Virus record (IMG/VR): IMGVR_UViG_3300036766_000416
Span: 96,001 to 160,000 of that record
Origin: a virus
DNA length: 64,000 nucleotides
Reading direction: 5' to 3' (one strand)
The notes below the pieces were generated by a model. The model was given only the letters and a program-made list of their open reading frames with translations. It did not search any database and was not told where the DNA came from. The position numbers and the translations under genes were made by a program. Positions within the stretch are counted from its first letter, which is position 1. Each line of letters opens with the position of its first letter. Positions 11,993 through 46,040 of the stretch are shown here, piece after piece.

Positions 11993-12021
11993 TTGACAAC
12001 CCTCTGATACTCTGTTATAAT
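11993..12021 (+). promoter_or_regulatory. Sigma70-type promoter for uvsY (extended -10)
   Basis: TTGACA-N17-TATAAT with a TGn extension; ATG lies 8 nt downstream with no SD. Confidence 0.8.
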
Positions 12022-12028
12022 ACTCGTC

Positions 12029-12493
12029 ATGATCCTCGACACTTCTCACCCATCAACTGCCCAGGTCGACGCACTCTTGACTGAGTGGCAAAAAGACTCG
12101 GCCCTTAATCGCCTGGAGCCATCTGCGGAACTCCAAAAAATAGGTTCTCTACACTCCAAATATCTATTGATCCTTAGTGCCCACAGACGAACCTTCCAAG
12201 AGGGAGAACGAAGGGTGTTCAAACTTAGGCGACTCAAATATGAATATTACTCAGGACGACTCGATAAAGACACCTTGGACAAATATGGGTGGCCACCATT
12301 CCCATATACACTCAAGGGTGACCTCAACACTTATCTCGATTCCGACAAAGATTTACTAAACGCAAAAATAGTTCAAAACATCCACGAAGAAATCGTGGAC
12401 ATTTGTGAGAGAATTCTCAAGGAACTAGGGTCAAGAACATTCGCTCTCCGCGACATCATAAAATGGGAAATGTTTATACAGGGTACCCACTGA
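12029..12493 (+). CDS. uvsY: Recombination mediator UvsY
   Basis: EWQKDS, LHSKYL, KYEYYSGR, P.P..L..DL..YLDSD.DL, WE.F..G; adjacent to uvsW. Confidence 0.88.
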   Translation: MILDTSHPSTAQVDALLTEWQKDSALNRLEPSAELQKIGSLHSKYLLILSAHRRTFQEGERRVFKLRRLKYEYYSGRLDKDTLDKYGWPPFPYTLKGDLNTYLDSDKDLLNAKIVQNIHEEIVDICERILKELGSRTFALRDIIKWEMFIQGTH

Positions 12494-13971
12494 TGGAACA
12501 GATCACCCTTACCAAATTCAACGAGGCCTTTGTCAAGTTTGACTGTGAACGAGGTGTGGGGCAGGAAATTTGGGACTTCTTTTCATTCTATGTACCTGGG
12601 TTTCAATACATGCCCGCGTTCAAGAAGAAATTTTGGGACGGCAAGATGCACCTGGCAAACCTCCAGACACACACAATCCCAGGTGGTCTGGTAGGATACC
12701 TCAAGACATTCGCCGAGGAACGACAGTATCGCCTGGTCATTGACGAATCCATCTTACTGACCACAAGCTTTTCGTTAGCGGAGGCACAAGCATTCGCGGA
12801 TTCTTTGAGACTACCTCATGTGCCCAGAGATTATCAGATCGAAGCCTTTGCGAAGAGTATTCGAAATCGTCGGTTACTCGTGGTCAGTCCAACGGCATCG
12901 GGCAAATCGTTGATCATCTATCTAATCGTTCGGCACCTCCACCTCACACACCTCAAAGGTTTGGTGATTGTCCCGACGACCTCACTGGTCGAACAACTGT
13001 TTGGTGACTTCAAGGCCTATGGGTGGGACTCTGACAGGTATGTGCATCGCATTTATTCGGGAAAAGAGAAACACACGAATCATTTTTTGACGATTTCAAC
13101 ATGGCAATCACTACACCGACAAGGACCCGAGTACCTCAAGCAATTTAATTTTGTGGTCGGTGACGAAGCGCACCAGTTCAAAGCGAAATCTTTGACAGAC
13201 ATCATGGGGAACCTCACGAATGCTGACGTCCGAATCGGCACCACAGGTACACTGGATGGCGCCAAGGTCCATAAGCTGGTCCTCGAAGGTCACTTTGGTC
13301 CAGTATTTCAAACAGTAACCACCAAAGAACTGATGACCTCTGGACACCTCGCAAACCTCACGATCAAGTGTCTGGTACTCAAGTACCCCAAAGAGGTCTG
13401 CGCTCAACTACGAAAGTCCACGTACCCCGAAGAGTATGAGGCCGTTGTCCAGCACCTAGCGCGAGCAAAGTTTGTTCGAAACCTTGCGTTATCATTGAAA
13501 GGAAACACCCTGATTCTCTTTCAACTCGTCAAGAAACATGGGCGTCCCCTCTATGAGGACATTGCAAGTCACATAGTAGACGGTCGCTCGGCGTTTTTTG
13601 TTCATGGTGGTGTGGAAACCGAGGACCGTGAATCAATTCGTAAGATCACTGAGGAGGGTGAGAACGTCATTGTGGTCGCTTCCTATGGGACCTTTAGCAC
13701 GGGTATCAACATCAAGAATCTCCATAACGTGATCTTTGCTGCGCCGTCCAAGTCCAAGATTCGGAACCTTCAATCTATTGGTCGAGGTCTTCGCACAACA
13801 GACAGCAAGACTCAAGCGACGTTGTTTGACATTGTGGACGACCTTCGCATCGGGAAACACCAGAACTTCTTGCTCAAACATTTTATAATACGCACACAGA
13901 TTTACCATGATGAGAAATTCTCATTTCAACAATACCTGATCGACCTGAAGGGACCTGATGCCACACGATAA
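12493..13971 (+). CDS. uvsW: SF2 DNA helicase UvsW
   Basis: WDGK..L, PRDYQ, SPTASGKS, GDEAH, GTTGTL, ASYGTFSTGINIKNLHNVIFAAPSKSKIRNLQSIGRGLR. Confidence 0.96.
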   Translation: MEQITLTKFNEAFVKFDCERGVGQEIWDFFSFYVPGFQYMPAFKKKFWDGKMHLANLQTHTIPGGLVGYLKTFAEERQYRLVIDESILLTTSFSLAEAQAFADSLRLPHVPRDYQIEAFAKSIRNRRLLVVSPTASGKSLIIYLIVRHLHLTHLKGLVIVPTTSLVEQLFGDFKAYGWDSDRYVHRIYSGKEKHTNHFLTISTWQSLHRQGPEYLKQFNFVVGDEAHQFKAKSLTDIMGNLTNADVRIGTTGTLDGAKVHKLVLEGHFGPVFQTVTTKELMTSGHLANLTIKCLVLKYPKEVCAQLRKSTYPEEYEAVVQHLARAKFVRNLALSLKGNTLILFQLVKKHGRPLYEDIASHIVDGRSAFFVHGGVETEDRESIRKITEEGENVIVVASYGTFSTGINIKNLHNVIFAAPSKSKIRNLQSIGRGLRTTDSKTQATLFDIVDDLRIGKHQNFLLKHFIIRTQIYHDEKFSFQQYLIDLKGPDATR

Positions 13972-14419
13972 CATTCGTATGTTTTTGCTGACCAACAACG
14001 ACCTGGTCATTGCTGACGTGTTCGACACCAGTACCGACACCGTAAACCTTAACATGCCGGCTGTGGTCCTCTCCAATCGCATACCACAAGGTGACCTAGG
14101 GTTTATCATTCTGCCCTGGCAGCCCTTTGAATTGCTGGACAGCACCATCATGGTCCTGTCACGAACCAAGAATGTTTTCTGTGACCTACTACCCAGTCCA
14201 GGATTGATAGAATACTACCGGTCCTGGAAGCACAATGAAGAGGATAAGCGCAACAAATTCTCAAAACGTCTTGCTGAACAACTCCAGCAGATCACCAAGC
14301 TCACCAACATGAGGCACCATGAGATGGTCGCGGGTGATAGCTACGAGGATTTTACGGCTGCTGTCAATGAGAAATTTGAACACGACACCGAGTGGGGCGA
14401 TCCGTCAGCTAACAACTAA
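13958..14419 (+). CDS. Hypothetical protein between uvsW and gp55
   Basis: Intact 153-aa ORF overlapping the end of uvsW. Confidence 0.7.
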   Translation: MPHDNIRMFLLTNNDLVIADVFDTSTDTVNLNMPAVVLSNRIPQGDLGFIILPWQPFELLDSTIMVLSRTKNVFCDLLPSPGLIEYYRSWKHNEEDKRNKFSKRLAEQLQQITKLTNMRHHEMVAGDSYEDFTAAVNEKFEHDTEWGDPSANN

Positions 14420-14435
14420 TGACTGGAATCACATT

Positions 14436-14999
14436 ATGGCGACGAAAACAACTGAGTATGTCAATAATGCCACGCTTTTGCAGGAATTGGTGGCCCACAG
14501 AAAGGCTATACGGAAGGCCAAGAGGAATAAGCAAGAACCTCCGTTGCTCAATGACTACATTGGCACCTGCTTTCTCAAGATTGCGGACCACATGTCACGC
14601 AAACCCAGGTTTCTCTATTACAGTTTTCGCCAAGATATGATTTCAGAAGCCGTGGAATTGTGTGTGCGCTATGTGAATAATTTTGACCCAGCGAAGTCCA
14701 AGAACCCGTTTGCGTATTTTACCCAGATCACGTACCATGCGTTTTTCCATCGGATCAACAAAGAGCGCAAGCAACTCTACCTGAGGTACAAATCGACAGA
14801 ATTGTTGGGGTTACTCCAGGGCACCGCGCTCCACGATACCAAAGACCTTGGTATCGAACGTGCCAAGTCCTTCAAGGTCTATGAGAACATCAGCGATTTT
14901 ATTCAGACCTTTGAACAAAGTCGGAAGCAGAAAAAACGACGCAAAATTGTGAAGCCCACAACACGCGGTACCCTGAAGCATTTTATAGGAGATAAATAG
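14436..14999 (+). CDS. gp55: Late-transcription sigma factor
   Basis: EYVNNA.LL, YIG.CF.KIA..MS.KP.F..YS.R.DMIS, FDP.KSKNPFAYFTQI...AF..RI.KE.KQ. Confidence 0.96.
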   Translation: MATKTTEYVNNATLLQELVAHRKAIRKAKRNKQEPPLLNDYIGTCFLKIADHMSRKPRFLYYSFRQDMISEAVELCVRYVNNFDPAKSKNPFAYFTQITYHAFFHRINKERKQLYLRYKSTELLGLLQGTALHDTKDLGIERAKSFKVYENISDFIQTFEQSRKQKKRRKIVKPTTRGTLKHFIGDK

Positions 15000-15170
15000 G
15001 TGGCACTGAAACCAGAATTACAGAACCCAAAGCGGTCACAATTTGACCCCACTGAATCAGAGGCAAGACTGGCTTCCATTGAACAGACACTCGCAGATCA
15101 TGAACAACGTCTAGCAGTTGTCGAATCTTTTGTCTGGCGATTATTGAAACCTACACGGAGAACGGAATGA
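15000..15170 (+). CDS. Small hypothetical protein (56 aa, below the ORF-track cutoff)
   Basis: GTG at 15000 abuts the gp55 stop. The open frame reads ALKPELQNPKRSQFDPTESEARLASIEQTLADHEQRLAVVESFVWRLLKPTRRTE, and its TGA overlaps the gp47 ATG (ATGA). Confidence 0.6.
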   Translation: MALKPELQNPKRSQFDPTESEARLASIEQTLADHEQRLAVVESFVWRLLKPTRRTE

Positions 15171-16243
15171 AAATCGCATTGATCAATGACAGCCACTTCG
15201 GTGCGCGGGGCGAGAACCCTCACATCAACGAATATTTTCACCGGTTTTATCAGAACATCCTATTCCCATACCTCAAGGAACACGACATCAAAACCTTGGT
15301 CCATCTGGGTGATGTGGTAGACCGTAGAAAATTTATCAATTTTCAAATTTGGAACTCTTGGCGCACACGGGTCTTTGATCGTTTGCGGCGTGAAGGCATC
15401 ACGGTCCACATGCTCACGGGCAACCATGACACCTATTTTCGCAACACGAACGATGTCAACGCACTGGATGAACTCCTGGGTGGCTACACCAACATCAAAA
15501 TTTATACCGAAGCTTGCGACGTGGTCTTCGATGGTCTCACAGTTACGATGGTGCCCTGGATCAACAGTGGGAACCTTGAACGGACCTTGGACTACCTCAA
15601 GCACACCACATCTCAGATCATCTTTGGACACCTGGAAATTTCAGGGTTTGAAATGGACCGTGGCAACGTCTGCCAGACTGGGTTGACCAGAGAGGTGTTT
15701 GACAAGTTTGATATGGTCCTTAGTGGACACTTCCATCACAAGTCCAGCGATGGTACCATTTATTACCTGGGCAACCAAGTGGAGATTACCTGGGCAGACT
15801 ATGGCGACAAGCGAGGGTTCCATGTGTTCGATACGGATACTCGTGACCTGACGTTCATCGAGAACCCCGATCACCTGTTCTATCGGCTGACCTACGATGA
15901 CAGTATCCAGAATTTTGAGTATTGGAAGCACCAAGACTTCAGTGCCTATGCGAACTCGTATGTCAAGATGGTGGTCACACGCAAGCAGAACCCCTATCTA
16001 TTCGATACGGTCATGGACCAACTCTACAAGGTCACCCCCATCGACGTCACCGTTGTTGAGGACTACACCGAACAGGTGATTGGCGAACAGCACGAACTTG
16101 ACCAAGCAGAAGACACAATCACCATCATTCAGAAATGTGTGGACACCATGAAACTCGAAAACCATGTGCAACCAGCGGCCCTCAAGCAATTGCTCCAAGA
16201 ACTGTACGTCGAGGCCCTGAACACAGAAACGGCAATCCAATGA
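15167..16243 (+). CDS. gp47: Recombination nuclease (Mre11/SbcD-like)
   Basis: DSHFGAR, HLGDVVDRRK.IN, GNHD.YFRNTND, GHLEI.GF, SGHFHH. Confidence 0.96.
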   Translation: MKIALINDSHFGARGENPHINEYFHRFYQNILFPYLKEHDIKTLVHLGDVVDRRKFINFQIWNSWRTRVFDRLRREGITVHMLTGNHDTYFRNTNDVNALDELLGGYTNIKIYTEACDVVFDGLTVTMVPWINSGNLERTLDYLKHTTSQIIFGHLEISGFEMDRGNVCQTGLTREVFDKFDMVLSGHFHHKSSDGTIYYLGNQVEITWADYGDKRGFHVFDTDTRDLTFIENPDHLFYRLTYDDSIQNFEYWKHQDFSAYANSYVKMVVTRKQNPYLFDTVMDQLYKVTPIDVTVVEDYTEQVIGEQHELDQAEDTITIIQKCVDTMKLENHVQPAALKQLLQELYVEALNTETAIQ

Positions 16244-17952
16244 TTCGGTTTTTGTCTATTGAGTGGCGGAACATTCTCAGTACAGGGAACTACTACACCC
16301 ATATCGACCTCAACGCCTCTCAGAACACTCTCATTGTAGGTGAGAATGGGTCGGGGAAATCAACCATTTTAGATGCTCTGTGCTTTGCCCTTTACAACAA
16401 ACCCTTTCGGAACATCACCAAGCCGGCGTTGCTGAACTCCATCAACCAGAAGGAAGCTCTTGTCAAGGTAGAATTCACTACGGATAACCACACGTTCAAG
16501 ATTGTGCGGGGGATCAAGCCGAATGTGTTCGAAATTTTCAAGGACGGGGTGCTGCTGAACCAAGAGGCCGAAGCCAAGGATTACCAGGGGTACCTGGAAA
16601 AATTCATCCTCAAGCTGAATTACAAATCATTCACCCAGATCGTCATTCTGGGGTCCGCTTCGTTCACTCCCTTCATGCAGCTTTCTGCCTCAGACAGGCG
16701 AGCGATCATTGAGGACCTTCTGGACATTCAAATTTTCTCAGTGATGAACGGGTTGGTCAAAGAAAAGTTTTCGGGTATCTCATCACAGCGTAACGAAAAC
16801 AGACTCTTGATTGAGGGTGCCCACGAGAAGATTGCGATTCAGGAACGGTACCTCAATGAGATGCAGCAGGACCACGAGAAACTGATTCTTGAGTACCAGA
16901 AGGAACACCAGCAACACACCGAGGAAATCAATCGTCTGTCGGCCAACATCCTGGACTGCAAACATGCGATCAACACCCTATCCACCACGATTCTCGACAA
17001 ACCAAAGGTCGAAGCAGCCATCAAGAAAGTCACCCAGCTTGAGGCGCAAATCGAGAACGTATCGAGCAAGCACGTCAAGGCCGTTCAGTTCTTTGAAGCC
17101 CATGACAACTGCCCAACGTGTACCCAGGTGATCGATGCGACCTTCAAGACCGAGCACCTGGCACAACTGAACGACAAGATTGCCGAGTGTGCCAAGGGCC
17201 TCATGCAACTGGAAGAGAAGTTTCTGGTTCAACAAGCTCGGCTCACTGAGGTTCACGACACCGAAGCTCAGATCGACAAGAAGAAGCACGAGCTAGCCGT
17301 CGATACCACCACGGTGTCACAGATCAAGAAGTTCATTGGCAAACTCAACGAAAAAATCACGGGTTTACAAGGCACTCATCACTCCGTTGAACGCGAACAC
17401 GAACGCTTAGACACCCACCGTCAGGAACTTGGTCAGCTAGAGGAGACCAAGAAAACCTTGGTGGAGCAGTCGTCCTACTACGAGGTCGCTGGTAGTCTTC
17501 TCAAGGACACAGGTATTAAGACCAAAATTATTCGCCAGTACCTTCCGATCATCAACATGTTTGTCAACAAGCACCTGGCCCAGATGGACTTCTTTGTGAA
17601 CTTCAATCTGGATGACACGTTCAAAGAAACCATTAAGTCAAGACACCGAGATGAATTTACTTACCCATCTTTCTCGGAGGGTGAGAAACAACGTATCGAC
17701 ATGGCACTCATGTTGACATGGCGAGCAGTGGCCAAACTCAAAAACTCGGTGAACACAAACTTGTTGATACTGGATGAAATTTTCGATTCCTCAATGGATA
17801 CCACTGGGGCAGAGGAACTGATGAAGATACTACATGGTCTTGATACGGCCAACGTGTTTGTTATCTCACACCGCGGAGACATTCTTGGTGACAAATTTCA
17901 GCGAGTGATCAGGTTCCAGAAGAATCAAAACTTTAGCCATATTGTCAACTAA
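16240..17952 (+). CDS. gp46: Recombination ATPase (Rad50/SbcC-like)
   Basis: Walker A GENGSGKST, CPTC zinc hook, FSEGEK signature, LILDEIFDS. Confidence 0.97.
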   Translation: MIRFLSIEWRNILSTGNYYTHIDLNASQNTLIVGENGSGKSTILDALCFALYNKPFRNITKPALLNSINQKEALVKVEFTTDNHTFKIVRGIKPNVFEIFKDGVLLNQEAEAKDYQGYLEKFILKLNYKSFTQIVILGSASFTPFMQLSASDRRAIIEDLLDIQIFSVMNGLVKEKFSGISSQRNENRLLIEGAHEKIAIQERYLNEMQQDHEKLILEYQKEHQQHTEEINRLSANILDCKHAINTLSTTILDKPKVEAAIKKVTQLEAQIENVSSKHVKAVQFFEAHDNCPTCTQVIDATFKTEHLAQLNDKIAECAKGLMQLEEKFLVQQARLTEVHDTEAQIDKKKHELAVDTTTVSQIKKFIGKLNEKITGLQGTHHSVEREHERLDTHRQELGQLEETKKTLVEQSSYYEVAGSLLKDTGIKTKIIRQYLPIINMFVNKHLAQMDFFVNFNLDDTFKETIKSRHRDEFTYPSFSEGEKQRIDMALMLTWRAVAKLKNSVNTNLLILDEIFDSSMDTTGAEELMKILHGLDTANVFVISHRGDILGDKFQRVIRFQKNQNFSHIVN

Positions 17953-17963
17953 CGAGGTACCCC

Positions 17964-18623
17964 ATGAAAGAGTTTACCTACAATACATCGACACCCCCAA
18001 CCATCGTGCAGAAGAAGTATGACCCGCTACCTCTTTACAATGATAAGAATCCGATGCTCGCACAACGACAGGAGGCCATGGACCTCAATCCACTGCCTGT
18101 GGACCTCATCGAGACCTGTAACCGATTGCTGGCGACCATGAATCAGTATGGTGGCGTAGGTCTCGCTGCTCCTCAATGTGGGATACCCTTGAGGCTCTTT
18201 GTCATGACTGGTGGAATGGTGTGCATCAACCCTCGGATTCTCACAGCTTCTATTGAGACCCTACGCGAGAAAGAGGGGTGCCTCTCGTTTCCTGGACTCT
18301 ACCTACCTATTACACGGTCCAGGACCATTGAGGTCGAATACTTCAACGAGTTTGGTGTGCAGAAGCACGAGACATTTTCTGGTGCCACGGCGAAAGTCTT
18401 TCAACATGAGACCGATCACCTCAATGGCATTGTCTTTACGTCTCTGGTGGGAAACCTGACACTCCAGATGGCCAAGAAGAAAAAACAAAAGCTCTTCAAG
18501 CGCATGGAGCGCATTGTGGAGGTCAAGGAAATGCAGCGCAAGATGGCTGATCTGGTCAGCAAGAGCGCGATGGCCAAGGTGGCACCTCGTGCAGTTCAGG
18601 TTCAGTCAAACAGAGTGACATAG
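17964..18623 (+). CDS. def: Peptide deformylase
   Basis: All three motifs present: GVGLAAPQ, EGCLS, QHETDH. Confidence 0.95.
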   Translation: MKEFTYNTSTPPTIVQKKYDPLPLYNDKNPMLAQRQEAMDLNPLPVDLIETCNRLLATMNQYGGVGLAAPQCGIPLRLFVMTGGMVCINPRILTASIETLREKEGCLSFPGLYLPITRSRTIEVEYFNEFGVQKHETFSGATAKVFQHETDHLNGIVFTSLVGNLTLQMAKKKKQKLFKRMERIVEVKEMQRKMADLVSKSAMAKVAPRAVQVQSNRVT

Positions 18624-18629
18624 GGTGGC

Positions 18630-19787
18630 ATGATGAAAAGTTGGCAATGTGGTTTCGAAATTGATGAACTGAAAACCTTGGAGGCCTTCTACGAGCCATA
18701 CAATCGCTATGCCCTGTCACCGTTCGGAAAATTTAAGAAGAATGACATCGCCACCAAGCTGGACAACAAGGCCTTCAACCAGGTCAACGACCGAGACGGG
18801 CACGTCGAGGCAGCTTGGGTGCGTGAAAGGTCAAAGGTACCCAGCAAGATCACGATGCACGGCAAAACCATCATTGGTGAGAAACTCAAGGGTGACGTGA
18901 CCCTTTCAAGACTCTGTGGTGACCCAGAGACCTTAGAGACCTCACTGATGCATGAGGGGTACACGATGGACAACTGCTGGCTCCTGTCCTACGGTGGGGA
19001 CACCGCGATCTGCCGGCTCGCTGAACGCCTGGGGTTCAAGAAAATTGGCTACAAGGTCACCTCGTTTGCAGAGATCATGGCGGTCTATTTTCGGGACAGT
19101 GACCTCAGTTTGGCACCCAGGAACCACCCAGTGGTGAACAAGGCTGACTTGGTGGGTATGGCAAAGATTGCGAGCATAGGGTCCACGTTGCCCTTGTTGA
19201 TTCTGCAGAAAATCCAACTCAAAGGTCTCCAATACACCAATCACTACAGCAACTACAACACCAAGAATGCCTGGTCTGCATTGGCCCTTCGAGGTTACTC
19301 AGCGGACGCCGCGTTCATCACGAAGCCCGCTGAGATGAATGACAAGTGGCATGAGGCCCACACACACGAACACTTCGAACTTCAAGATACCCCACTCTAC
19401 GCACAGTTCCCCGAAGTCAGAAAACTACTTACGTTTTTAGACGGGGAGTGCCACCGAGTCAGATTTATGCGTCTCGCCCCTGGTGGGGGAGAACTTACTC
19501 GTCATACAGACCAGGTAGACCCCGACGCTGGCAACTCACTAGGCGCGCTGGCTCGCTTGCACTTCCCTCTCAAAACCAACAAGGACGTCCTATTCAGCAC
19601 ATGGAATGGTGACGACCAAGAGGAACGCTATCACTTTGGATTCGGTGAGTGTTGGGTCATTGATACTCGGAAACCTCATATGGCTGTCAATGGGGGCACA
19701 GAGGAACGGATACACCTCGTGGTTGACGTGATTGTGACACCTAAAATCGAACGCATGATCACCGAAGGACTCTCTATTCGAGCCTAA
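18630..19787 (+). CDS. Two-domain protein: possible GNAT-like N-terminus plus Asp/Asn beta-hydroxylase-like 2OG-Fe(II) oxygenase
   Basis: C-terminal RVRFMRLAPGGGEL..HTD...RLHFPL...H.A.N...RIHLVVD (HxD...H jelly roll); N-terminal AICRLAERLGFKKIG loosely resembles GNAT motif B. Confidence 0.65.
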   Translation: MMKSWQCGFEIDELKTLEAFYEPYNRYALSPFGKFKKNDIATKLDNKAFNQVNDRDGHVEAAWVRERSKVPSKITMHGKTIIGEKLKGDVTLSRLCGDPETLETSLMHEGYTMDNCWLLSYGGDTAICRLAERLGFKKIGYKVTSFAEIMAVYFRDSDLSLAPRNHPVVNKADLVGMAKIASIGSTLPLLILQKIQLKGLQYTNHYSNYNTKNAWSALALRGYSADAAFITKPAEMNDKWHEAHTHEHFELQDTPLYAQFPEVRKLLTFLDGECHRVRFMRLAPGGGELTRHTDQVDPDAGNSLGALARLHFPLKTNKDVLFSTWNGDDQEERYHFGFGECWVIDTRKPHMAVNGGTEERIHLVVDVIVTPKIERMITEGLSIRA

Positions 19788-19805
19788 TCAACCACTTAGC
19801 ACCCC

Positions 19806-19834
19806 TTGACACCTGGACCTGGTTGTGATACCCT
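19806..19834 (+). promoter_or_regulatory. Sigma70-like promoter
   Basis: TTGACA-N17-TACCCT with TGA before the -10; near-identical layout to the 27557 promoter. Confidence 0.6.
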
Positions 19835-19873
19835 TAGTATGACAGTTGAAGAAACACCAGGAGCCTTTATATT

Positions 19874-22800
19874 ATGAGTACCCTCAGCAAACTTACAAAG
19901 ATTGTCAGACACAATTACAAAAAGTCTCTGGCCAGGGAACCCAAGGTTCTTCTCTATGTCTATCAGATGATGGACCACAAACCCCTGAATTCTGCCGACG
20001 GGATATACAGTCTCAAGGTGGGGGACCATTGGTGTATCTTCAGGGACATTTATGCGGCCGCCAAAAGGCGAATTCGAGAGGGGTTGGGGTGCCACAAAGC
20101 TGCCCTGGATGACGGTCGAATCAAGATTCTCGCAGTATTCGATGTGACTGTGTATGCCAAGCACCACAAGAAATATAAAAAACATGGCAAGATCGACCTC
20201 AATGTTCACAAAGTTATTCCAGGTCACTATCGAGATGACAATTTCCATGTCAACGATATTGGTGAAGTTCTAGCTCTCATCACCAAAGAAATCAACCGCT
20301 ATTCGACAGCACAACAGAAGGACACCCTCAAACTCAGCCCTCTCCAACACGATCTGCTCAGAGATTCCATTGTGGCCTACAAGGCAGGGAAACTCCGACA
20401 GTTGTTCGCCGCGGCAGCACGAATCGGAAAAACCTGTATGGCTCTGGCTCTCATGCGGGAACTGAACCTTCCGTTTATGGTGTTCGCCAGCTACGTCACG
20501 ACTTCACTCAATTCGATGATTCAGGATGCCGCAAAGTTCGCGCAATTCCACAACATCCTTGTGGTCGATACGCGAAAAAATGACTACCAACAACTCATTA
20601 GTGAAGGTCTTGCGGCGGGTAAGCAAATCGTGGCGCTCCTGAGTATGTGCAATGGTGATGATCGACAGGAACGCATCGACTTTCTCTTCAAGCTGAACCT
20701 TCTTCAAACGTTGGTGGTCGACGAGGCAGACTATGGGTCACATCAACCGACGCAAACCGAACCACTTCAAGCAGCGGTCTCTGTAAACGAATTGGTGATC
20801 CTGATGTCAGGGACCAATCCAGAACGGTCTATGAGTACCTGGAAAATCGACTTCCAGCGACACATCAGTAATCAAGACATGCAAGTGGCCAGAGGGCTGT
20901 ACCTCAGAGGTGAGTACAAACAGTCACCGAGCAAGATGCTCTTCTTCAAGAAGGACTACAGCATTCTCGGCGCGGTTGTTCCGGCTCGCTACTACCAAAT
21001 GACCCTCAAGAAACTTCAGGACCTCGCCAAACTCCAGCACCCAGAGGCCTTCACGGATGATGAACTGTGGGGTTCGTGGATCAAGTGGATGAAGAACCCA
21101 GCGAAGGCCAGTGGCCCACTGTCCATGTTCTTTGAGTCAGTCTTTGAGGGCAAGTGGAACCTCGAAGAAGTCAACACCAGGTATCAGTTTAGTATCACCC
21201 CAGGTGGACAACAAGTGGTGATGGTCTGGCTGCCTTCCTGCACCGAGACCGAGAAGATGAACTTGTTCGCTGAGATTGCTCAAAAAAGTCTCAAAAACTG
21301 GGACGTGATTCCGCTCTCTGGTGGAGTGACGACCCCCGATGGCACCAGGATGACAGGCGCGAAGGCTGAACGCCATGTGAATGAACGTATTGCCTCAGCC
21401 AAATTCAATGGCAACCGCAACGTCATGATCATCTCAGCGATCATGGGTGCCCGCTCATTCGGGATCAAGGAAATCACTGAGGTCTATCTGTGCTACGATG
21501 AGGGAGCGGTGGGTTCGACGATTCAGAAAATGTCACGAGCCCTCACACCGTTCTTCGACGGGACTGAGAAACTTGCTCGCATTGTCTCGTGCAGCTTCGA
21601 CCCTAACCGTGACGAGAAATTCGACCCACTGGTCCTTGAGTGTGCCAAGCACACCAAGGCTCTGTATGGGATACCCCTGGTCAAGGCCATCAAACTCGTG
21701 CTACGCACGTCAGACTTCTTTGTGATGACCCAGGATGGACCGAAACCCTATGAAATCTCCGCGTACCTTGAGGGTGTGTTGGCCCGCAAGAGTACCGCGC
21801 GGGTGTTCGGGAAAATTTTCAAGCTGGAAAACATTCCCACTGACCTGTTGGAGTCTATCGCCAGGGTCTCTGGAAAAATCGGCAAGACCACGAAACAAGA
21901 AGTTGCTCAACGAGGCAAGACGCTCGCTGAGGTCCTCAAGAAATCACCAGGAACCAAGAATACTCCGGCTCAAGACAAAATCTGGAAAGACATCCACAAC
22001 GGCCTGGTCTACATCGCGTCCAACATCGATTGGATCATGTGCTTCGGTCGCCGTGGGGCCTCATTGGTGGAGTGCCTGGACATTCTCGATAAGGAAACTC
22101 AGAGGACCCGGGATGGCCTCGCTGAGGATTATGGTATCCCCTATGCGGACCTCGCACGATTGCTTCGGTGCGACGTGAGTAGCCATGACCTCCTGGAGTT
22201 GGAGTCCTACGCGGGCACTGGGACCGCTAGCAACCGCACAAAATTTTCTATCGACCCAGTGGTGATGGAGATGTTGGCGATCATTCCTGAGAAGGATTGG
22301 CAGTCGTCTACCAAGACCTTTGCGGACCTGGCGATGGCAGGAGGTCAGTTTATTGTTGGGCTGGTGCGAATGCTGAGAACCTACGGACACTCAGACGAGA
22401 ACATCAGGAGTCGTGTGTTCGGATTCGACACCTGCAAGCACAGAATTCTCGCTGCTAAATACCACTGTCCAGACCTCATCGGAACCTTTGAGGTCAAAAC
22501 AATCGAGGAGTTGATGAAGATGACCCAGAAATTTGACGTGATCGTTGGGAACCCACCGTTTCAACAAAATAGCAAAATCGCAAAAGACAGCGGCACCAAT
22601 AAACTCTGGAATAAATTTACAAAACTCGCTATCGATCTTTCACCGGGGGGATATGTGACATACATCACCCCCCAATCATGGTTGGTGGGAAACAGGACAT
22701 TCGACCTGCTCACCAGTAAGAAATCAATAAGTGTTAATACCGAAATCTCTCATTATTTTCAGGGTGTTAATAGTTCTTTCTGCTCGTGGGTTCTGTCAAA

Positions 22801-39720: not shown

Positions 39721-40199
39721 GCCAACTAAGCCCGCATTTTTCATTGAGGGAACTGACACGATCTGATACCGCACTGAGACTGGGTATAGACAATCTTCCA
39801 ACAGAAGAGCACTTGAAGAATCTTGTGCTGGTCTGTCACCATATACTAGAGCCAGTTCGCGCAAAGTTCGGAGTGGTCCGAATCAATTCTGGGTACCGGT
39901 CACTCGCACTGAACATGTCCATAAACCCTATGACGACCACACTCACTAGGTTATCTAGGCACTGCACGGGGCAAGCAGCAGACTTTGAGGTGGATGGGGT
40001 TTCGAACGTAGTAGTCGCCGAATGGTGTCGAGACAATCTCCCTGAGTATCAACAAATTATTTTGGAATTTTATACTCCAGGTCAACCAAACTCTGGATGG
40101 GTGCACGGAGCATATGTGGTCGGACAGCAGAAAAAAGAGTGTCTGACAGCGGTGAAGGTGAATGGAAAAACAACATATCTATTAGGATTACAACCATGA
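39717..40199 (+). CDS. Peptidase M15 family (endolysin-like Zn peptidase)
   Basis: LSPHFSL.EL..S, INSGYRS, SRH..GQAADF, WVH. Confidence 0.85.
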   Translation: MSQLSPHFSLRELTRSDTALRLGIDNLPTEEHLKNLVLVCHHILEPVRAKFGVVRINSGYRSLALNMSINPMTTTLTRLSRHCTGQAADFEVDGVSNVVVAEWCRDNLPEYQQIILEFYTPGQPNSGWVHGAYVVGQQKKECLTAVKVNGKTTYLLGLQP

Positions 40200-40214
40200 A
40201 TAAGAAAAGGAATA

Positions 40215-40568
40215 GTGATGCATCCGTATCATGATGTAAAAAACTTTGTTGAGATCAGTGGTGCCCGAGACCCTGTATTGTATGAGAAATTGATTGGAGA
40301 GGAATATAAAGAATTTCTCGCTGCCAAGACCGATGACAATAAATTGCAAGAGGCCTCCGATCTTATCTGGGTATTATATGGTTACTGTATCACTCGTGGA
40401 TGGGACGTTGATGGTGCCTGGCAAGAATTGACGAAAGCGAACATGGCGAAGATACAAGTTGATCCTACCACTGGGCAATTGAAACGCCGTGCTGATGGAA
40501 AAATTTTGAAACCCGCCGGCTGGGTGAAGCCGGATATGATACCGTTTCTTAACATTACGAAGGAGTGA
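40215..40568 (+). CDS. MazG-like / PRA-PH family NTP pyrophosphohydrolase
   Basis: IGEEYKEF...EASDLIWV.YG...ANMAK...RRADGKILKP.GW. Confidence 0.8.
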   Translation: MMHPYHDVKNFVEISGARDPVLYEKLIGEEYKEFLAAKTDDNKLQEASDLIWVLYGYCITRGWDVDGAWQELTKANMAKIQVDPTTGQLKRRADGKILKPAGWVKPDMIPFLNITKE

Positions 40569-40573
40569 ACATC

Positions 40574-40906
40574 ATGGGGGATATCAAGTTAATTGTGCTC
40601 AACAATGGGCTTCAAATTATGGGTGAGATCGTGAGTACCGACGCAGGTGACGCATCGATCCATAGCCAAGGTAAAGTTCTGGTTGTCAATCCGGTCAGTG
40701 TGGTAATGGTACCTAACAAGACCCCTGGTCAACATCAGGCGCAGATTGGTTTCGGATCGTTTCTGGAGTATGTCGAAGAATACAAAACTGGTATCCCACT
40801 GCATGTGACCGACATCCTGACAGTGGTCACACCGGTACAGGATTTGCTCAATCACTACAAGACCCTGTTCTCTGGTCTCGTGCTACCTCCTGGGATTAAC
40901 GGTTGA
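40574..40906 (+). CDS. Small Sm-like hypothetical protein
   Basis: IKLIVL.NG.QIMGEI...VVNPV...Y...F pattern, resembling small proteins near gp43 in T4-likes. Confidence 0.6.
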   Translation: MGDIKLIVLNNGLQIMGEIVSTDAGDASIHSQGKVLVVNPVSVVMVPNKTPGQHQAQIGFGSFLEYVEEYKTGIPLHVTDILTVVTPVQDLLNHYKTLFSGLVLPPGING

Positions 40907-40931
40907 CAATTCTCAGTGAATGTGTTATCAT
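40903..40931 (+). promoter_or_regulatory. Sigma70-like promoter for the DNA polymerase gene
   Basis: TTGACA-N17-TATCAT; ATG 6 nt downstream, no SD. Confidence 0.75.
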
Positions 40932-40936
40932 AGTCC

Positions 40937-42460
40937 ATGTCCAAGCCTTTCTACACCAATGTCTCGGTGAGCGGAAACCACGTCTACTATCGTGGTATCG
41001 AAAACGGTCGTCGGGTGCAGCGGAAACTCTCCTATGCCCCGACGCTCTTTGTGCCTTCAAAGACCCCCAACACCACAGTCACCTGGAAAGACCTGCAAGG
41101 TAACCCTGTTGAACCAATGAAGTTCACGTCGATCTACGACGCCAAAGATTTCATCAAACGGTACAAGGACGTTAAAGGGTTCACGATCTACGGACAGCAA
41201 AACTTTGCGACGGCTTTCATTGCAGAACAGCACCCCGAAGAAATTATGGAATGGGACCTTGCCCATGTGGTGACCGCGTACATCGATATCGAAGTCGATA
41301 CTGAGTACCGAATGCCAGACGTCGATACCTGCCTGAATCCCATCACTGCTGTCACTATCAAATTTTCCAACGACCCCCAGTATCATGTGTTTGGCTGCAA
41401 TCAGTATACCCCTCACCGTCCCGATATCACCTGGTATCAGTGTGTCGATGAGTGTAACCTTGTAACCCGCTTTATGTCACTGTGGCGCGACAGAGCCCCT
41501 GATATCATTACTGGGTGGAGTGTCAAGACCTTCGATATTCCCTACCTCGTCGGACGTATCATCATGTTGTTAGGTGAGGATCAAGCTCAGTGGTTGTCAC
41601 CATGGGGGAAGGTGAACCGTCGTGAAGAAAAATCAAAGTTCGGGAAACCAATTACTACGTACCAACTTTTGGGTATTTCCACTCTTGACTATTTTCAACT
41701 CTACAACAAGTATGCCCCCAAGTCGAACCAAGAATCCTACAAGTTAGACTACATCGCTCATGTGGAATTGGGTGAACGCAAAGTCAACTATGAAGAACAT
41801 GAAACACTTCACAACCTTTATCGAGACAATTTTCAAAAATTTATTGAGTATAACATTCATGACGTCGAGTTAGTGGAAATGCTCAATGCCAAGGGACGCC
41901 TTGTTGATATGGCTGTCTTGCTTGCCTACGACAACAAGACGAACTATGAAGATGCGTTTTTTCAGGTACGTATGTGGGATGCGATCACCTACAATCACCT
42001 GAACCGAAAGTATATTGTGATACCTCCCAAAAAGGGAGAGGAAAAAGACGAAGCGTATGAGGGTGCGTATGTCAAGGACCCACAGACAGGTCTCTTTGAG
42101 TGGTTGATGAGTCTGGACTTGGATAGCTTGTACCCCCATTTGATTATGCAATATAACTTGTCACCCGAAACATTGATCGACCCCAAGAACTATACACCTG
42201 CTATGAAAGCGGTGTTGGAACAGGGGGTATCCGTAAACGCTTTGCTCCAGCAAAAGATCACCCTTGATGGTCTTGAAGGGTGTACGCTGACCCCCAATGG
42301 ACAATTTTTTGATACCACTCGGGTTGGATTTCTTTCTGAGATTATGGATACCATGTATGCCGCTAGGGTACACTACAAAAATAAGCAACTCGAATTAGAA
42401 CTAGAACTTGAGGAGATTAAGGGGGAAATGATGCGGCGAGGAACTAACTTTCCTAAATAG
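40937..42460 (+). CDS. gp43: DNA polymerase B, N-terminal subunit (43A: exonuclease, motif A, start of fingers)
   Basis: DIEV (ExoI), GW..KTFDIPY (ExoII), YNIHDV (ExoIII), YEGAYVK, SLDLDSLYP..I.QYNLSPET; ends in the fingers tip. Confidence 0.95.
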   Translation: MSKPFYTNVSVSGNHVYYRGIENGRRVQRKLSYAPTLFVPSKTPNTTVTWKDLQGNPVEPMKFTSIYDAKDFIKRYKDVKGFTIYGQQNFATAFIAEQHPEEIMEWDLAHVVTAYIDIEVDTEYRMPDVDTCLNPITAVTIKFSNDPQYHVFGCNQYTPHRPDITWYQCVDECNLVTRFMSLWRDRAPDIITGWSVKTFDIPYLVGRIIMLLGEDQAQWLSPWGKVNRREEKSKFGKPITTYQLLGISTLDYFQLYNKYAPKSNQESYKLDYIAHVELGERKVNYEEHETLHNLYRDNFQKFIEYNIHDVELVEMLNAKGRLVDMAVLLAYDNKTNYEDAFFQVRMWDAITYNHLNRKYIVIPPKKGEEKDEAYEGAYVKDPQTGLFEWLMSLDLDSLYPHLIMQYNLSPETLIDPKNYTPAMKAVLEQGVSVNALLQQKITLDGLEGCTLTPNGQFFDTTRVGFLSEIMDTMYAARVHYKNKQLELELELEEIKGEMMRRGTNFPK

Positions 42461-42484
42461 TGCGTTGGGAAGGGAGAATTTCAT

Positions 42485-43189
42485 ATGTATTATTTGATTT
42501 ATAAGACGGTTAACCGTCATAATGGAAAGTATTATATTGGTTCCCACGAGACCTGTAACCCATACGATTCTTATTTGGGGTCGGGTACAATACTTAGGCG
42601 TGCAATAAAGAAATATGGTAAGAGAAATTTTACAAAATTCATTATAGAGTTCTGCGACACTAGAGATATAATGTATGAGCGGGAAAGGGAATTGGTAGAA
42701 GTTGCCAGGAAAGATGAAAGAAGTTATAATGTAAATGTGGGAGGTTCTGGTGGATGGAATTTTGTGAATGAAAGTGGAACGAATCTAGGTTTGGGCAACC
42801 CCATGCATCAACAAAATGCAAAGAAAGCGGTGTCCGTTGCGATAAAATCTAATTGGGCAAAAAATCGCCCAAAGTATTTGAAAATTTCTTTGGATAATCT
42901 TTCTAAAGCCAACAATGTTGGCGTCATAAGAAGCGCATACACTCGTAAACTTATATCAGAAAACAATAGAAAAATGTGGAATAATCCTGTAATTCGAGAG
43001 AAAATTTTGTATGCTAATCGCACAAAATTTGAAATATTATCTCCTGGTGGAGAGATTTTTCATACTGACCAATTGGAAAAATTTTGCATCGACCGAGGCC
43101 TAACTTACGTATCAATATGGGACACTATTCGTCGTAAAAGGCCAGTGAAGAAAGGTCGATCAAAGGGGTGGATGTGCAAAAAGATTTAA
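42485..43189 (+). CDS. GIY-YIG homing endonuclease between 43A and 43B
   Basis: YYLIYKTVNRHNGKYYIGSH...YLGSG..L..AIKKYGK.NF.K; SYNVNVGG.GG. Confidence 0.88.
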   Translation: MYYLIYKTVNRHNGKYYIGSHETCNPYDSYLGSGTILRRAIKKYGKRNFTKFIIEFCDTRDIMYERERELVEVARKDERSYNVNVGGSGGWNFVNESGTNLGLGNPMHQQNAKKAVSVAIKSNWAKNRPKYLKISLDNLSKANNVGVIRSAYTRKLISENNRKMWNNPVIREKILYANRTKFEILSPGGEIFHTDQLEKFCIDRGLTYVSIWDTIRRKRPVKKGRSKGWMCKKI

Positions 43190-44339
43190 CTTCTATATCA
43201 GATAAGGAACTCCAGCGCCTTCGTAAGGAGAAAGAGTTTGAAATTTCACGCTATAGGAATCTCCAATTAGCGAAGAAAGTAGGACTCAACTCTGCTTACG
43301 GGGCGCTGGGTTAGGTTCTGAATACTTCAGGTTCTTTGATATCCGTATTGCCGAGGGTGTCACACTAGCAGGTCAGTTGGGTATCCGCTGGATTGGAAAC
43401 AGACTGAATGGGTTCCTCAATACCCTTTTGAAAACTACCGAGGTGGACTATGTGATTGCCAGTGATACGGACTCGGTATACCTACATCTCGCACCGCTAG
43501 TGTGTCGTGTGTTTAAGGACACCACAGATACCCAAAAAGTCATTGACTTTCTTGATAAAGTGTTCAAGGAAAAAATCAAAGGTTTCATCGAAATGAACTA
43601 TACGGAGCTTGCTAAATACACCCATGCGTATGCCCAGAAGATGCGTATGAAGCGTGAATCTCTGGCGAACAAAGGCATCTGGACAGCCAAGAAACGCTAT
43701 ATCCTGAACGTGTGGGATTCAGAGGGTGTTCGGTATAAAAAACCCAAGATGGTCATTCACGGTCTGGAGGCGATCAAATCTTCGACACCTGGCGCCTGCC
43801 GAGAGAAGATCAAAGAGGCATTGACGATCATCATGAATGGTACCGAAAATGAACTCATCGAACATATTGAAAAATTTCGTGTGTCATTCAAGACCCTCCC
43901 CATTGCTGACATCGCATTCCCTCGTGGTATGAATGACCTAGAAAAATGTGACAGTGATGAATGCAATGATTCAACCAGTGCGTTGTCGTTCGATGATTCG
44001 TCAACAGCCGACCGACAAATTTATGAAAACCGTACACCCATCCACGTCAAGGGTGCGCTCGTGTATAATAGGTTTTTGAAACAAATGAAACTTGATACGC
44101 AATATGAAACCCTGCGTTCGGGTGAAAAACTGAAATTTGTGTACCTCAAGGAACCCAATATTTTTCGAGAATCAGTTATGTCGTTCCTGGTGCGCGTACC
44201 CAAAGAATTCCACCTGGAAACCTGTGTGGACTATGACCTCATGTTCACCAAGGCCTTCCTTGATCCCCTCAATATTGTCTTGAAATGTATTGGGTGGTCA
44301 GCCGAGAAGAAATCTACACTAGATGATTTTTTTGGATAG
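43168..44339 (+). CDS. gp43: DNA polymerase B, C-terminal subunit (43B), interrupted by a stop and frame change at 43312-43316
   Basis: Frame from GTG 43168 gives [17 protein letters not shown]-stop (motif B). A different frame from 43317 continues [25 protein letters not shown]...ASDTDS (motif C)...KKRY...TPIHVKG. Confidence 0.85.
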
Positions 44340-44360
44340 CAGCTTCTTTAGTTTGTCATA

Positions 44361-44627
44361 ATGATCTATTTAGCAACGGAGGTTCTTCTCATGACTCCTG
44401 TAAAGGATGGTTTCAAAATTGTCGATATGCCCAAACTGGACTATAAGGGTAGGGTACTCTGTAACCGCTGTGGTATCGAGTGTGACAGTGACCAGTTACT
44501 CTACGCGAGACCTCTCGAAGGTTTCAAGAGCAAGTACCTATCCTGGTACTGCCCGACCTGGAATTGCCATGGTCACCTGAGTAGTGGAGTTTATTTTCTG
44601 TCAACTTCGACTCTCACCGAGGGTTGA
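44361..44627 (+). CDS. Small Zn-finger-like hypothetical protein
   Basis: CNRC ... CPTWNC cysteine pairs. Confidence 0.5.
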   Translation: MIYLATEVLLMTPVKDGFKIVDMPKLDYKGRVLCNRCGIECDSDQLLYARPLEGFKSKYLSWYCPTWNCHGHLSSGVYFLSTSTLTEG

Positions 44628-44652
44628 CTTTACTCATCAACTGTGCTATAAT
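44624..44652 (+). promoter_or_regulatory. Sigma70-like promoter
   Basis: TTGACT-N17-TATAAT. Confidence 0.7.
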
Positions 44653-44663
44653 CGAAAGGATCA

Positions 44664-45017
44664 ATGATGAAATTCACATACGAAGAAATTGCGGAAATCT
44701 GTCACGAGAATAACCGAGCGTATTGCCATGCGTTTGGCGACTACTCGCAACCAGCATGGAAGTATGTGCCCCAAGAAATCAAGGATTCGATTGTCAACGG
44801 TGTCGAATTTCACCTGGCGAATCCTGATGCCAGCCCCGAAGCATCGCACAAGCAATGGGTCAAAATCAAGCTAGAAAATAAGTGGAAGGTGGGTCCTGTT
44901 AAGGACGTGAAGAAAAAAGAGCATCCAAACTTGAGACCCTACAGCGAATTGTCAGACGTAGAGCGCGGAAAGGACATTATTTTCTCCGCGTTGGTTAATA
45001 CTCTCAAAGGAATCTAG
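44664..45017 (+). CDS. RyR-domain-like protein
   Basis: IAEICHE..R...SH..W...K...W..GPVKD..KKEHPNLRPYSELS..E..KD. Confidence 0.7.
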   Translation: MMKFTYEEIAEICHENNRAYCHAFGDYSQPAWKYVPQEIKDSIVNGVEFHLANPDASPEASHKQWVKIKLENKWKVGPVKDVKKKEHPNLRPYSELSDVERGKDIIFSALVNTLKGI

Positions 45018-45020
45018 AAT

Positions 45021-46040
45021 ATGAGCTTGATGGATCGAATCAAAAAAACCAGCAGCATAGAAATCGCTAGTGTCCTTGACGAATCAGAGGTATTCGGTGA
45101 GCGCCAACTCATTCTCACCGAGGTTCCAGTCATCAACATCGCCCTCTCCGGTACCCTAAAGGGTGGTTTGACTTCGGGTGTCACAGAGATTGCTGGACCC
45201 TCCAAACATTTCAAAACGGGTATTGCGTTGCTCTTGATGCGAGCATTCCTCAAGCAGTACCAAGATGGCGCAATTTTATTTTATGATGCCGAGTTTGGTA
45301 CCCCAGGTTCCTACTTCCAGACCTTCGGGATCGACATGAAGAAGGTCTTCCACACCCCCATCACCGACGTCGAACAACTCAAGCAAGACATCATGAAACA
45401 GTTGGTTGAGATGAAACGCGGAGACCACCTGATGATCGTCATTGACTCTATCGGACAATTGGCCTCACTCAAAGAAGTGGAAGATACCCTTGAAGGTAAG
45501 TCGGTGGCCGACATGACAAGGGCAAAGGCGATCAAGTCGTTGTTTCGTATGATCACCCCACACCTGAGAATCAAGGATATCCCATTGGTTGTGGTGAATC
45601 ACACCTACATGGAAATTGGTATGTTCCCTAAGGCTATCGCAAGTGGTGGTACGGGTATGACGTATGCTGCCGATACCATCTGGATTGTGGGTCGCCAACA
45701 GGAAAAGGTAGACAACGCGGTCGCTGGATTCAACTTCATTATCAATGTGGAGAAATCACGATTCGTGAAAGAGAAATCAAAGTTGCCCATCTCCGTGTCA
45801 TTCGAGAAGGGTATCGAACAGTATTCTGGTCTCCTAGAGATTGCTCTAGAGGGTGGGTTCGTGCTCAAGCCATTGCCTGGATGGTACGCGAAGCCGGGTG
45901 CCAAGACCAAGGTGCGCGAGGTAGACACCAAGACCGAAGAGTTTTGGAAGGACATTCTAGCCAATGAGGAATTTGATGCGTATATTCGAAAGCGTTTTGA
46001 AATGGCTTACGGCCAAATTTTGGGGAGTGACAACACCTAA
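45021..46040 (+). CDS. uvsX: RecA-like recombinase UvsX
   Basis: INIALSG...GG, AGPSKHFKT, FYDAEFG, IDSIGQLAS.KE, ADMTRAK..KSLFR, VNHTY, EKSRFVKEK. Confidence 0.96.
   Translation: MSLMDRIKKTSSIEIASVLDESEVFGERQLILTEVPVINIALSGTLKGGLTSGVTEIAGPSKHFKTGIALLLMRAFLKQYQDGAILFYDAEFGTPGSYFQTFGIDMKKVFHTPITDVEQLKQDIMKQLVEMKRGDHLMIVIDSIGQLASLKEVEDTLEGKSVADMTRAKAIKSLFRMITPHLRIKDIPLVVVNHTYMEIGMFPKAIASGGTGMTYAADTIWIVGRQQEKVDNAVAGFNFIINVEKSRFVKEKSKLPISVSFEKGIEQYSGLLEIALEGGFVLKPLPGWYAKPGAKTKVREVDTKTEEFWKDILANEEFDAYIRKRFEMAYGQILGSDNT

Follow-up and report, generated by a model that had tools for sequence, protein, structure and literature searches.

We uncovered a gap in the coding sequence of the gene for DNA polymerase (gene 43, PolB) of a T4-like phage, in a 64,000-nucleotide (nt) stretch of viral DNA, positions 96,001 to 160,000 of the IMG/VR record IMGVR_UViG_3300036766_000416 (the window, to which all positions refer unless they are marked as genome positions). 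The gap consists of five nucleotides, 43312-43316, that open with a stop codon directly after the glycine codon closing polymerase motif B and end with a second glycine codon. The best explanation, and in our judgment a very probable one, is that these nucleotides are a programmed bypass (“stop-hop”) site at the 3′ end of a mobile cassette, where they most likely break the target of the cassette's own homing endonuclease. The gap is real, conserved, linked to the cassette, independent of reading frame and flanked by coding sequence under selection. The source record (178,609 bp, with direct terminal repeats and a completeness rating of 100%) is the genome of a T4-like phage. The cultured phages with the nearest polymerases are cyanophages (cyanomyoviruses), at about 52% identity; a search of the genome finds psbA to be absent, and a near-identity search against cultured phages returned zero matches. 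The complete genome holds one PolB copy, the split gene, which is laid out as follows:

40937-42460, plus strand: 43A, the N-terminal part of the polymerase (exonuclease, motif A and first fingers helix), ending in a short C-terminal tail derived from the cassette (from Pfam, tblastn and alignment).
42485-43189, plus strand: free-standing gene for a Seg-like GIY-YIG homing endonuclease of 234 residues, occupying the split at the fingers tip.
43162-43176, plus strand: probable ribosome binding site (AAAGGGG) and 43B start (from the sequence, the list of open reading frames (ORFs) and comparison with the sister cassette, L089).
43168-43311, plus strand: part 1 of 43B, 46-48 codons comprising an N-terminal extension and motif B, the last being the take-off codon (from translation and PHROG).
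43309-43311, plus strand: take-off codon GGT (Gly), read from the sequence.
43312-43316, plus strand: the 5-nt coding gap, TAG (43312-43314) plus GT, whose final triplet (43314-43316) is the landing codon GGT (from the sequence and relatives).
43317-44339, plus strand: part 2 of 43B, the last 340 codons and the stop, covering the second fingers helix, the catalytic Asp motif and the thumb (from translation).

43A matches the Pfam families DNA_pol_B_exo1 (7e-16) and DNA_pol_B (3e-15) and covers residues 1-485 of its relatives at 84% identity in tblastn, with the alignment locating the end of the homology within 43A. By alignment, the split between 43A and 43B falls at the tip of the fingers domain, a known insertion spot of gene 43 among T4 relatives. 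43B would start at one of two GTG codons: that at 43168, which is the first start in frame, or that at 43174, which aligns with the ATG of the L089 cassette. Its part 1 matches PHROG 1918 (“DNA polymerase”) at positions 10-54 (1.9e-7) and is 83% identical to P0241, the 46-residue ORF product of the sister cassette, while part 2 is 84-85% identical to the relatives L001-L003 across all 340 residues, with a ratio of nonsynonymous to synonymous substitution rates (dN/dS) of 0.045-0.073 against L001/L002. The public gene calls are shortened: the polymerase C-terminal fragments appear as products of 276 and 295 residues and the endonuclease as one of 172 residues, and gene callers start the downstream polymerase ORFs at GTG 43452 (43452-44339) and further 3′.

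The first-pass annotation had drawn attention to GGT-TAG-GT at 43309-43316, and re-reading frames 1 and 0 shows both its coordinates and its arithmetic of five nucleotides to be right. Frame 1 runs through CTG (43306-43308) and GGT (43309-43311) into TAG (43312-43314), which is followed by the bases GT (43315-43316); frame 0 resumes at TCT 43317 and stays open until the stop at 44337-44339. The remainder of the polymerase does lie in another frame devoid of an early start, the earliest start codon in frame 0 being TTG 43377, with no ATG, GTG or TTG 5′ of there. It had also been claimed that skipping five nucleotides restores a colinear product. This is borne out by the 12 nearest IMG/VR relatives, against which the removal of 43312-43316 yields a colinear junction of exact length with zero indels. 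Each of these relatives carries a single uninterrupted polymerase gene, with neither an inserted ORF nor extra bases; they are 62-85% identical over the C-terminal part, and one shares all eight residues flanking the joint.

A search of related genomes, which the earlier reading had called for, turned up at least 58 loci with a stop-led gap at the exact codon. We scanned IMG/VR with degenerate patterns that fix only motif B, a glycine codon and a stop; these scans gave 26, 12 and 13 contigs (51 datasets), and a scan of a metagenome collection gave more. Every IMG/VR match is a T4-like PolB broken directly after the glycine closing motif B. Among the 58 tabulated gap-bearing loci, which include contigs from the 51 IMG/VR datasets, the gap is 5 nt long in 32, 9 nt in 10, 10 nt in six, 4 nt in five, 8 nt in three and 6 nt in two. 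Its first triplet is a stop (TAG, TAA or TGA) in all 58, and the take-off codon is GGT in 49, GGA in five and GGC in four. The last triplet is GGN in 53/58, whatever the frame, and stands directly 5′ of the resuming Asn or Ser codon, while the remaining gap bases vary freely. Thus, the gap lengths yield all three frame relations, with resumption always at the canonical next codon. Two sets of loci deserve separate mention. In the 4-nt clade of L125, L126, L128, L131 and L134, the triplet 5′ of the resuming codon is AGC, which does not encode Gly; here the ribosome may either hop with weaker re-pairing or shift by +1 and so insert a Ser. Further, L152, L173, L177, L189 and L197 from the metagenome scan encode Asn-Thr-Ala-Tyr-Gly followed by a TGA, two Gly codons, a TAG and then conserved, non-coding-looking DNA; this motif-B-like interruption, in what may be a separate polymerase group, could be of a different kind, e.g., a longer gap or an intron.

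The same variation bears on the alternative that survives best, itself improbable, namely a −1 frameshift at a shifty stop. Here, peptidyl-tRNA-Gly would slip from GGU 43309-43311 to GGG 43308-43310, UUA and GGU would be read, and Leu-Gly would be added after motif B. A stop in the A site promotes P-site slippage; moreover, frame 0 contains no stop across the site and encodes Leu-Gly ahead of the Ser codon, and the −1 triplet of the window is GGG, so that two of three bases could re-pair. The 5-nt form taken alone could also be accommodated by a −1 shift with a two-residue insertion, which counts against the hop. However, the 5-nt variants have G, A or T immediately 5′ of the take-off codon, and most of the relatives A or T; hence, the −1 re-pairing site is not conserved. 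Gaps of 6, 8, 9 and 10 nt at the same site would demand different shifts, and three 10-nt variants (L139/145/147, L144 and L146) place a resumed-frame TAA directly 5′ of the landing GGT, so that neither a +1 shift nor readthrough, but only a hop, joins the parts in them. The extra Leu-Gly is also lacking in all uninterrupted relatives and would sit in the fingers helix beside the catalytic residues of motif B.

The downstream ORF is intact, at 321-340 codons, in every full-length locus, and the dN/dS of the downstream part is 0.05-0.17 between gap-bearing pairs, with dS at or near saturation; thus, the stop and the landing GG have persisted through long divergence, during which neutral positions were replaced. 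In the gap-bearing lineages, the downstream part is translated and under strong purifying selection. Gap length shifts between sister lineages (9 and 5; 5 and 6) with the ORFs undamaged. The 5-nt gap is identical across L089-L094 and missing from all uninterrupted relatives. A very improbable account of this translation is a three-piece enzyme, in which synthesis would terminate at the TAG, and the C-terminal 340 residues would be made separately, by re-initiation near the gap, at TTG 43377 or at GTG 43452, and assemble with 43A and the 46-48-residue peptide. In its favor, the polymerase of related phages already works split, 43A and 43B being known from the literature to co-purify and to be active, and gene callers do place ORFs at GTG 43452 and further downstream. 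However, re-initiation finds no ATG, GTG or TTG between the gap and 43377, and a start there or later would lose at least 20 conserved fingers-helix residues that are still under selection. The break would lie within a helix and not at the fingers tip, and the conserved Gly triplet that ends gaps of every length would be left unexplained. The proposal of the first-pass annotation, i.e., that an essential gene is obligatorily recoded by a 5-nt hop from a Gly take-off codon, across the UAG next to it, to a Gly landing codon, draws strong support from these comparisons of sequences, as a predicted mode of decoding.

That annotation was silent on the upstream split and on the endonuclease cassette, and it is the cassette that explains why the gap exists. 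The 234-residue ORF matches the PHROG 314 homing endonucleases (2.5e-35), with a weak Pfam GIY-YIG match, and is 30-41% identical to Seg-like genes of T4-like phages; it shows 36% identity (E 3e-21) to the enzyme encoded between gp43A and gp43B of Aeromonas phage Aes120. A match to an endonuclease of Aes508 was set aside, since it falls within a tRNA region and has no connection with the polymerase. Peptide patterns gave no match to the endonuclease in IMG/VR, but a protein database search did find homologues. The nearest of these, P0122, is 54% identical and was seen in six sequencing runs, in at least 24 contigs altogether; it occupies the same insertion place in a polymerase that is only 52-54% identical, and is followed by the 46-residue ORF and a frame break. 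In this P0122 lineage (L089), the junction DNA equals that of the window for 29 nt ending with the gap, beyond which it gives way to a lineage-specific polymerase in a shifted frame. In the 24 nt 5′ of the gap the window is 96% identical to the sister cassette in L089 as against 75% to L001/L002, its nearest backbone relatives, whereas in the 24 nt 3′ of the gap it is 62% identical to L089 and 75-88% to L001/L002. The gap is the 3′ edge of the cassette.

This association holds across the family. In all 49 gap loci with at least 1 kb of upstream sequence, the polymerase is split 45-82 codons 5′ of the gap: 36 carry a full endonuclease gene of the same family, whose 3′ end overlaps the start of 43B, six a remnant and seven none that could be detected, with 43A directly abutting 43B in several of the last. 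Conversely, the gap occurs in 0/69 continuous polymerase genes. In a tree of the C-terminal polymerase parts, obtained with a quick IQ-TREE run, the window groups with the gapless L001 and L002 at 100% support, and the gap character changes at least five times on well-supported branches; the nesting of the window among gapless relatives, together with these changes, indicates that the cassette moved between lineages. Some relatives elaborate on the theme. In L089-L091 and L093, 43A is split again by a 240-residue ORF (about 2500-3470 in L089) that weakly resembles members of this endonuclease family; an 85-residue polymerase piece comes next, and the second insert is missing in L092. In L082-L087, T4-like phages from freshwater metagenomes, the fingers-tip split is instead made by a gene for a 170-residue 2OG-Fe(II) oxygenase, and their 43B, of 363 residues, is intact and gapless.

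The gap is not a sequencing or assembly artefact, an alternative that the first-pass annotation had kept and that the second assembly and the recurrence of the gap in dozens of contigs exclude. An independent Logan assembly of run SRR11714510, from another read set, has identical 507- and 234-residue products and a 295-residue ORF ending at the same distance, with the same total length; this shared layout means that the frame break is present there too. A self-trained coding-frame scan of the whole genome (178.6 kb) for coding signal 5′ of the first start ranks this site first and flags just one other, a trivial one of 10 codons; hence, the assembly is not riddled with frameshifts. With the recurrence of this structure in dozens of independent contigs, the feature goes well beyond chance. 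We accordingly give hardly any credence to the notion that nothing is decoded here, be it owing to an artefact or to a recent inactivating mutation in a defective genome. It could appeal to the truncated deposited gene calls and the metagenomic derivation of the genome, but it is confronted by the identical junction in the lineage of P0122, the dozens of further variants, downstream dN/dS values well under 1 and the fact that this is the sole polymerase gene of a complete genome. No more believable is removal or repair at the RNA level before translation, by a micro-intron, editing or polymerase slippage, although cultured phages set a precedent with a self-splicing group I intron only a few bases from the site. 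A stretch of 4-10 nt is too small for a ribozyme, and in 40000-46000 Rfam detects no group I intron, be it around the gap or around the endonuclease gene; there is no homopolymer run for slippage, and such a route needs neither an in-frame stop first nor a Gly triplet last, both of which are conserved.

Hence, the programmed bypass remains the preferred reading, and we propose the following course of events. Ribosomes would start 43B at GTG 43168 or 43174; once they reached GGU 43309-43311, the P site would be occupied by peptidyl-tRNA-Gly and the A site by UAG. Slow release would let the tRNA unpair and the mRNA slide by 5 nt, upon which the same tRNA would re-pair at GGU 43314-43316, with decoding resuming at UCU 43317. 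The product would be one polypeptide with the canonical sequence from motif B to the fingers and a Gly-Ser joint, while non-hopping ribosomes would release a peptide of 46-48 residues. The cassette, which has inserted at the fingers tip, is made up of the endonuclease gene, the extension at the N-terminus of 43B and a replacement motif B copy. Judged by analogy to MobA and gene 60 of T4 and to the Aeromonas phage 25 intron, what the gap most likely disrupts is the recognition or cleavage site of the endonuclease in motif B, the most conserved DNA of the gene, such that the carrier would be spared and gapless relatives cut; the target site could be broken without a change to the protein because the ribosome skips the 5 nt. 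It is in this sense that we infer the hop itself, its efficiency and its immunity function from the observed gap.

Several observations weigh against this proposal. Local RNA folding at the junction of the window equals that of shuffled controls (z 0.0 to 0.6), and a consensus hairpin computed from 16 distinct junctions of the 5-nt form is weak (−2.9 kcal/mol), with zero compensatory changes. A gap of 4-10 nt is too short for a spaced internal Shine-Dalgarno element, and the 46-48 residues 5′ of the take-off codon, which comprise polymerase sequence and the cassette extension, were not seen to resemble the nascent peptide of gene 60. In short, the take-off stem-loop, internal Shine-Dalgarno element and recognizable nascent-peptide signal of T4 gene 60 were not found here. 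The landing codon shows a wobble mismatch to the take-off codon in many lineages, e.g., GGT to GGA, and the five loci without a GGN landing triplet all have 4-nt gaps (TAG plus C). L095 and L096 possess both the split and an endonuclease gene (47% identical), and yet an intact 43B of 366 residues with no gap; their motif B DNA differs, with Ser for Ala and a TTA Leu codon, changes that may be an alternative escape from cleavage. The presumptive endonuclease target is itself deduced from relatives. Finally, the yield of synthetic stop-hops is near a percent. The engineered hops are described as non-programmed and low-level (PMC5009743), whereas here the site is conserved in an essential natural gene of a wide phage group; hence, a sufficient supply of the essential enzyme is left unexplained.

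Other candidate signals were tried and rejected. The CTGAA/TTCAG hairpin singled out by the first-pass annotation is present at 43318-43330, but it folds no better than shuffled sequence and is not conserved, occurring in a wobble version in the gapless L002 and L003 and being absent from the other cassette lineage, L089; it is thus unsupported as a signal. An upstream inverted repeat in one clade, involving two Gln-Leu codon pairs, has 82% of cells paired against 79% for shuffled columns, with no excess covariation, and is explained by codon composition. A Shine-Dalgarno-like GGGG six bases 5′ of the take-off codon is confined to the window and L089, consists of non-rare codons and is not conserved. 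As for a suppressor or otherwise odd tRNA, the confident calls hold no credible tRNA with a CUA anticodon or an expanded anticodon, and reading TAG as sense would still leave a 5-nt gap, so that a suppressor would not fix it. The tRNA cluster (genome about 12000-20500; L081) holds 25 tRNAs by ARAGORN defaults and 28 by Rfam. Its tRNA-Gly(GCC), at genome 18488-18562, is called only at a relaxed threshold, like several others, which suggests atypical features in these tRNAs. Within the cluster there is also a phage transfer-messenger RNA (tmRNA; genome 17283-17619, L081:5784-6120; RF00023, 81.6 bits, E 7e-31), which could be relevant to ribosomes that stall or fail at recoding sites.

Full-text literature searches returned no description of this polymerase gap element, and a 2022 survey of gene 60 homologues (bioRxiv 10.1101/2022.08.31.505936) leaves polymerases unmentioned. 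We assign the gap to the class of translational bypassing tied to a homing endonuclease cassette. Programmed bypassing has long rested on one bacterial-virus example, T4 gene 60 with its homologues, and on yeast mitochondria, and short stop-hops were previously known only from engineered constructs, natural ones not being known according to the 2016 recoding review (PMC5009743). The dozens of natural gap variants thus furnish material for defining the minimal requirements of hopping. They also suggest that homing endonuclease cassettes could hide the disruption of a target site via the ribosome instead of an intron. More broadly, we lean towards the view that hops of 4-10 nt over a stop at a Gly codon occur in diverse bacteria with an efficiency sufficient for an essential polymerase and without gene-60-like RNA signals; such micro-gaps, which may have arisen by reduction of the group I intron that stands at this place in cultured relatives, would take their place next to introns and inteins as a third general means by which homing endonuclease cassettes disrupt their own target within invariant coding sequence. 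On the practical side, gene callers systematically truncate such genes, and automatic annotation thereby hides both the split and the gap, affecting polymerase-based phylogenies and marker surveys of T4-like phages.

Among the known systems, the closest parallel is the bypass of T4 gene 60 within the MobA cassette (Huang 1988; Bonocora 2011; Manning and Atkins, bioRxiv 10.1101/2022.08.31.505936), where the 50-nt bypass insert prevents MobA from nicking its own genome. In both systems, a free-standing homing endonuclease gene has split an essential replication gene, and about 46 codons into the downstream half there follow a Gly take-off codon, a UAG directly 3′ of it, a non-coding gap and a Gly landing codon, the take-off and landing codons being matched (here GGT 43309-43311 and GGT 43314-43316). 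In both, too, the gap is the 3′ end of the cassette, and the endonuclease gene has been lost in some lineages while the gap stays. They differ in the length of the gap (4-10 nt in the polymerase against 50 in T4 and 20 in one clade), the host gene (PolB against the topoisomerase large-subunit gene) and the endonuclease (GIY-YIG Seg-like against HNH MobA). In addition, the landing wobble mismatches seen here exceed the range of one tRNA, and there is no sequence homology between the two cassettes.

Mechanistically, the proposed hop resembles the synthetic “stop-hops” or tRNA hopping of E. coli (Weiss et al. 1987), as presented in the review by Atkins et al. 2016 (PMC5009743): there, a stop stands between matched codons, short forward hops (+5, +6 and +9) are seen, re-pairing does not depend on frame, and a slow A-site codon acts as the trigger. 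For the mitochondrial “byp” elements of Magnusiomyces capitatus (Lang et al. 2014), the same review describes many short non-coding inserts in essential genes that are likewise skipped by ribosomes and tolerate imperfect take-off and landing matches. Unlike the polymerase gaps, the byp elements are mitochondrial and 27-55 nt long and are not reported with homing endonuclease cassettes.

The layout of the gene is shared with the split gene 43 of the type seen in Aeromonas phage 25, with 43A, a free-standing endonuclease and 43B arranged at the fingers tip and an interruption at motif B. In that phage, 43A and 43B form an active polymerase, and 43B carries a group I intron without an endonuclease gene of its own, which is predicted to use the free-standing one. 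The phage 25 enzyme reportedly cuts intron-free 43B DNA. In Aeromonas phage Aes120 (JN377898), the annotation lists gp43A, a GIY-YIG endonuclease and a gp43B assembled from two pieces. The same layout in E. coli phage G2285 (MK327933) is annotated as “unable to determine intron/exon boundaries”. Their group I introns (77 and 84 bits, respectively) begin just 3′ of the Tyr-Gly-Ala codons of motif B, about 3-6 nt from the gap position. The first-pass annotation had offered the scar of a lost mobile element as another alternative, and this is correct insofar as the gap belongs to a mobile cassette and lies next to the intron site of cultured relatives; however, the gap is maintained and in all probability decoded, and so is no dead scar. 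Thus, at nearly the same place in the same gene, phages of the phage 25 type harbor a self-splicing intron of about 240 nt that is removed from the RNA, whereas in the phage described here 5 nt are left to the ribosome.

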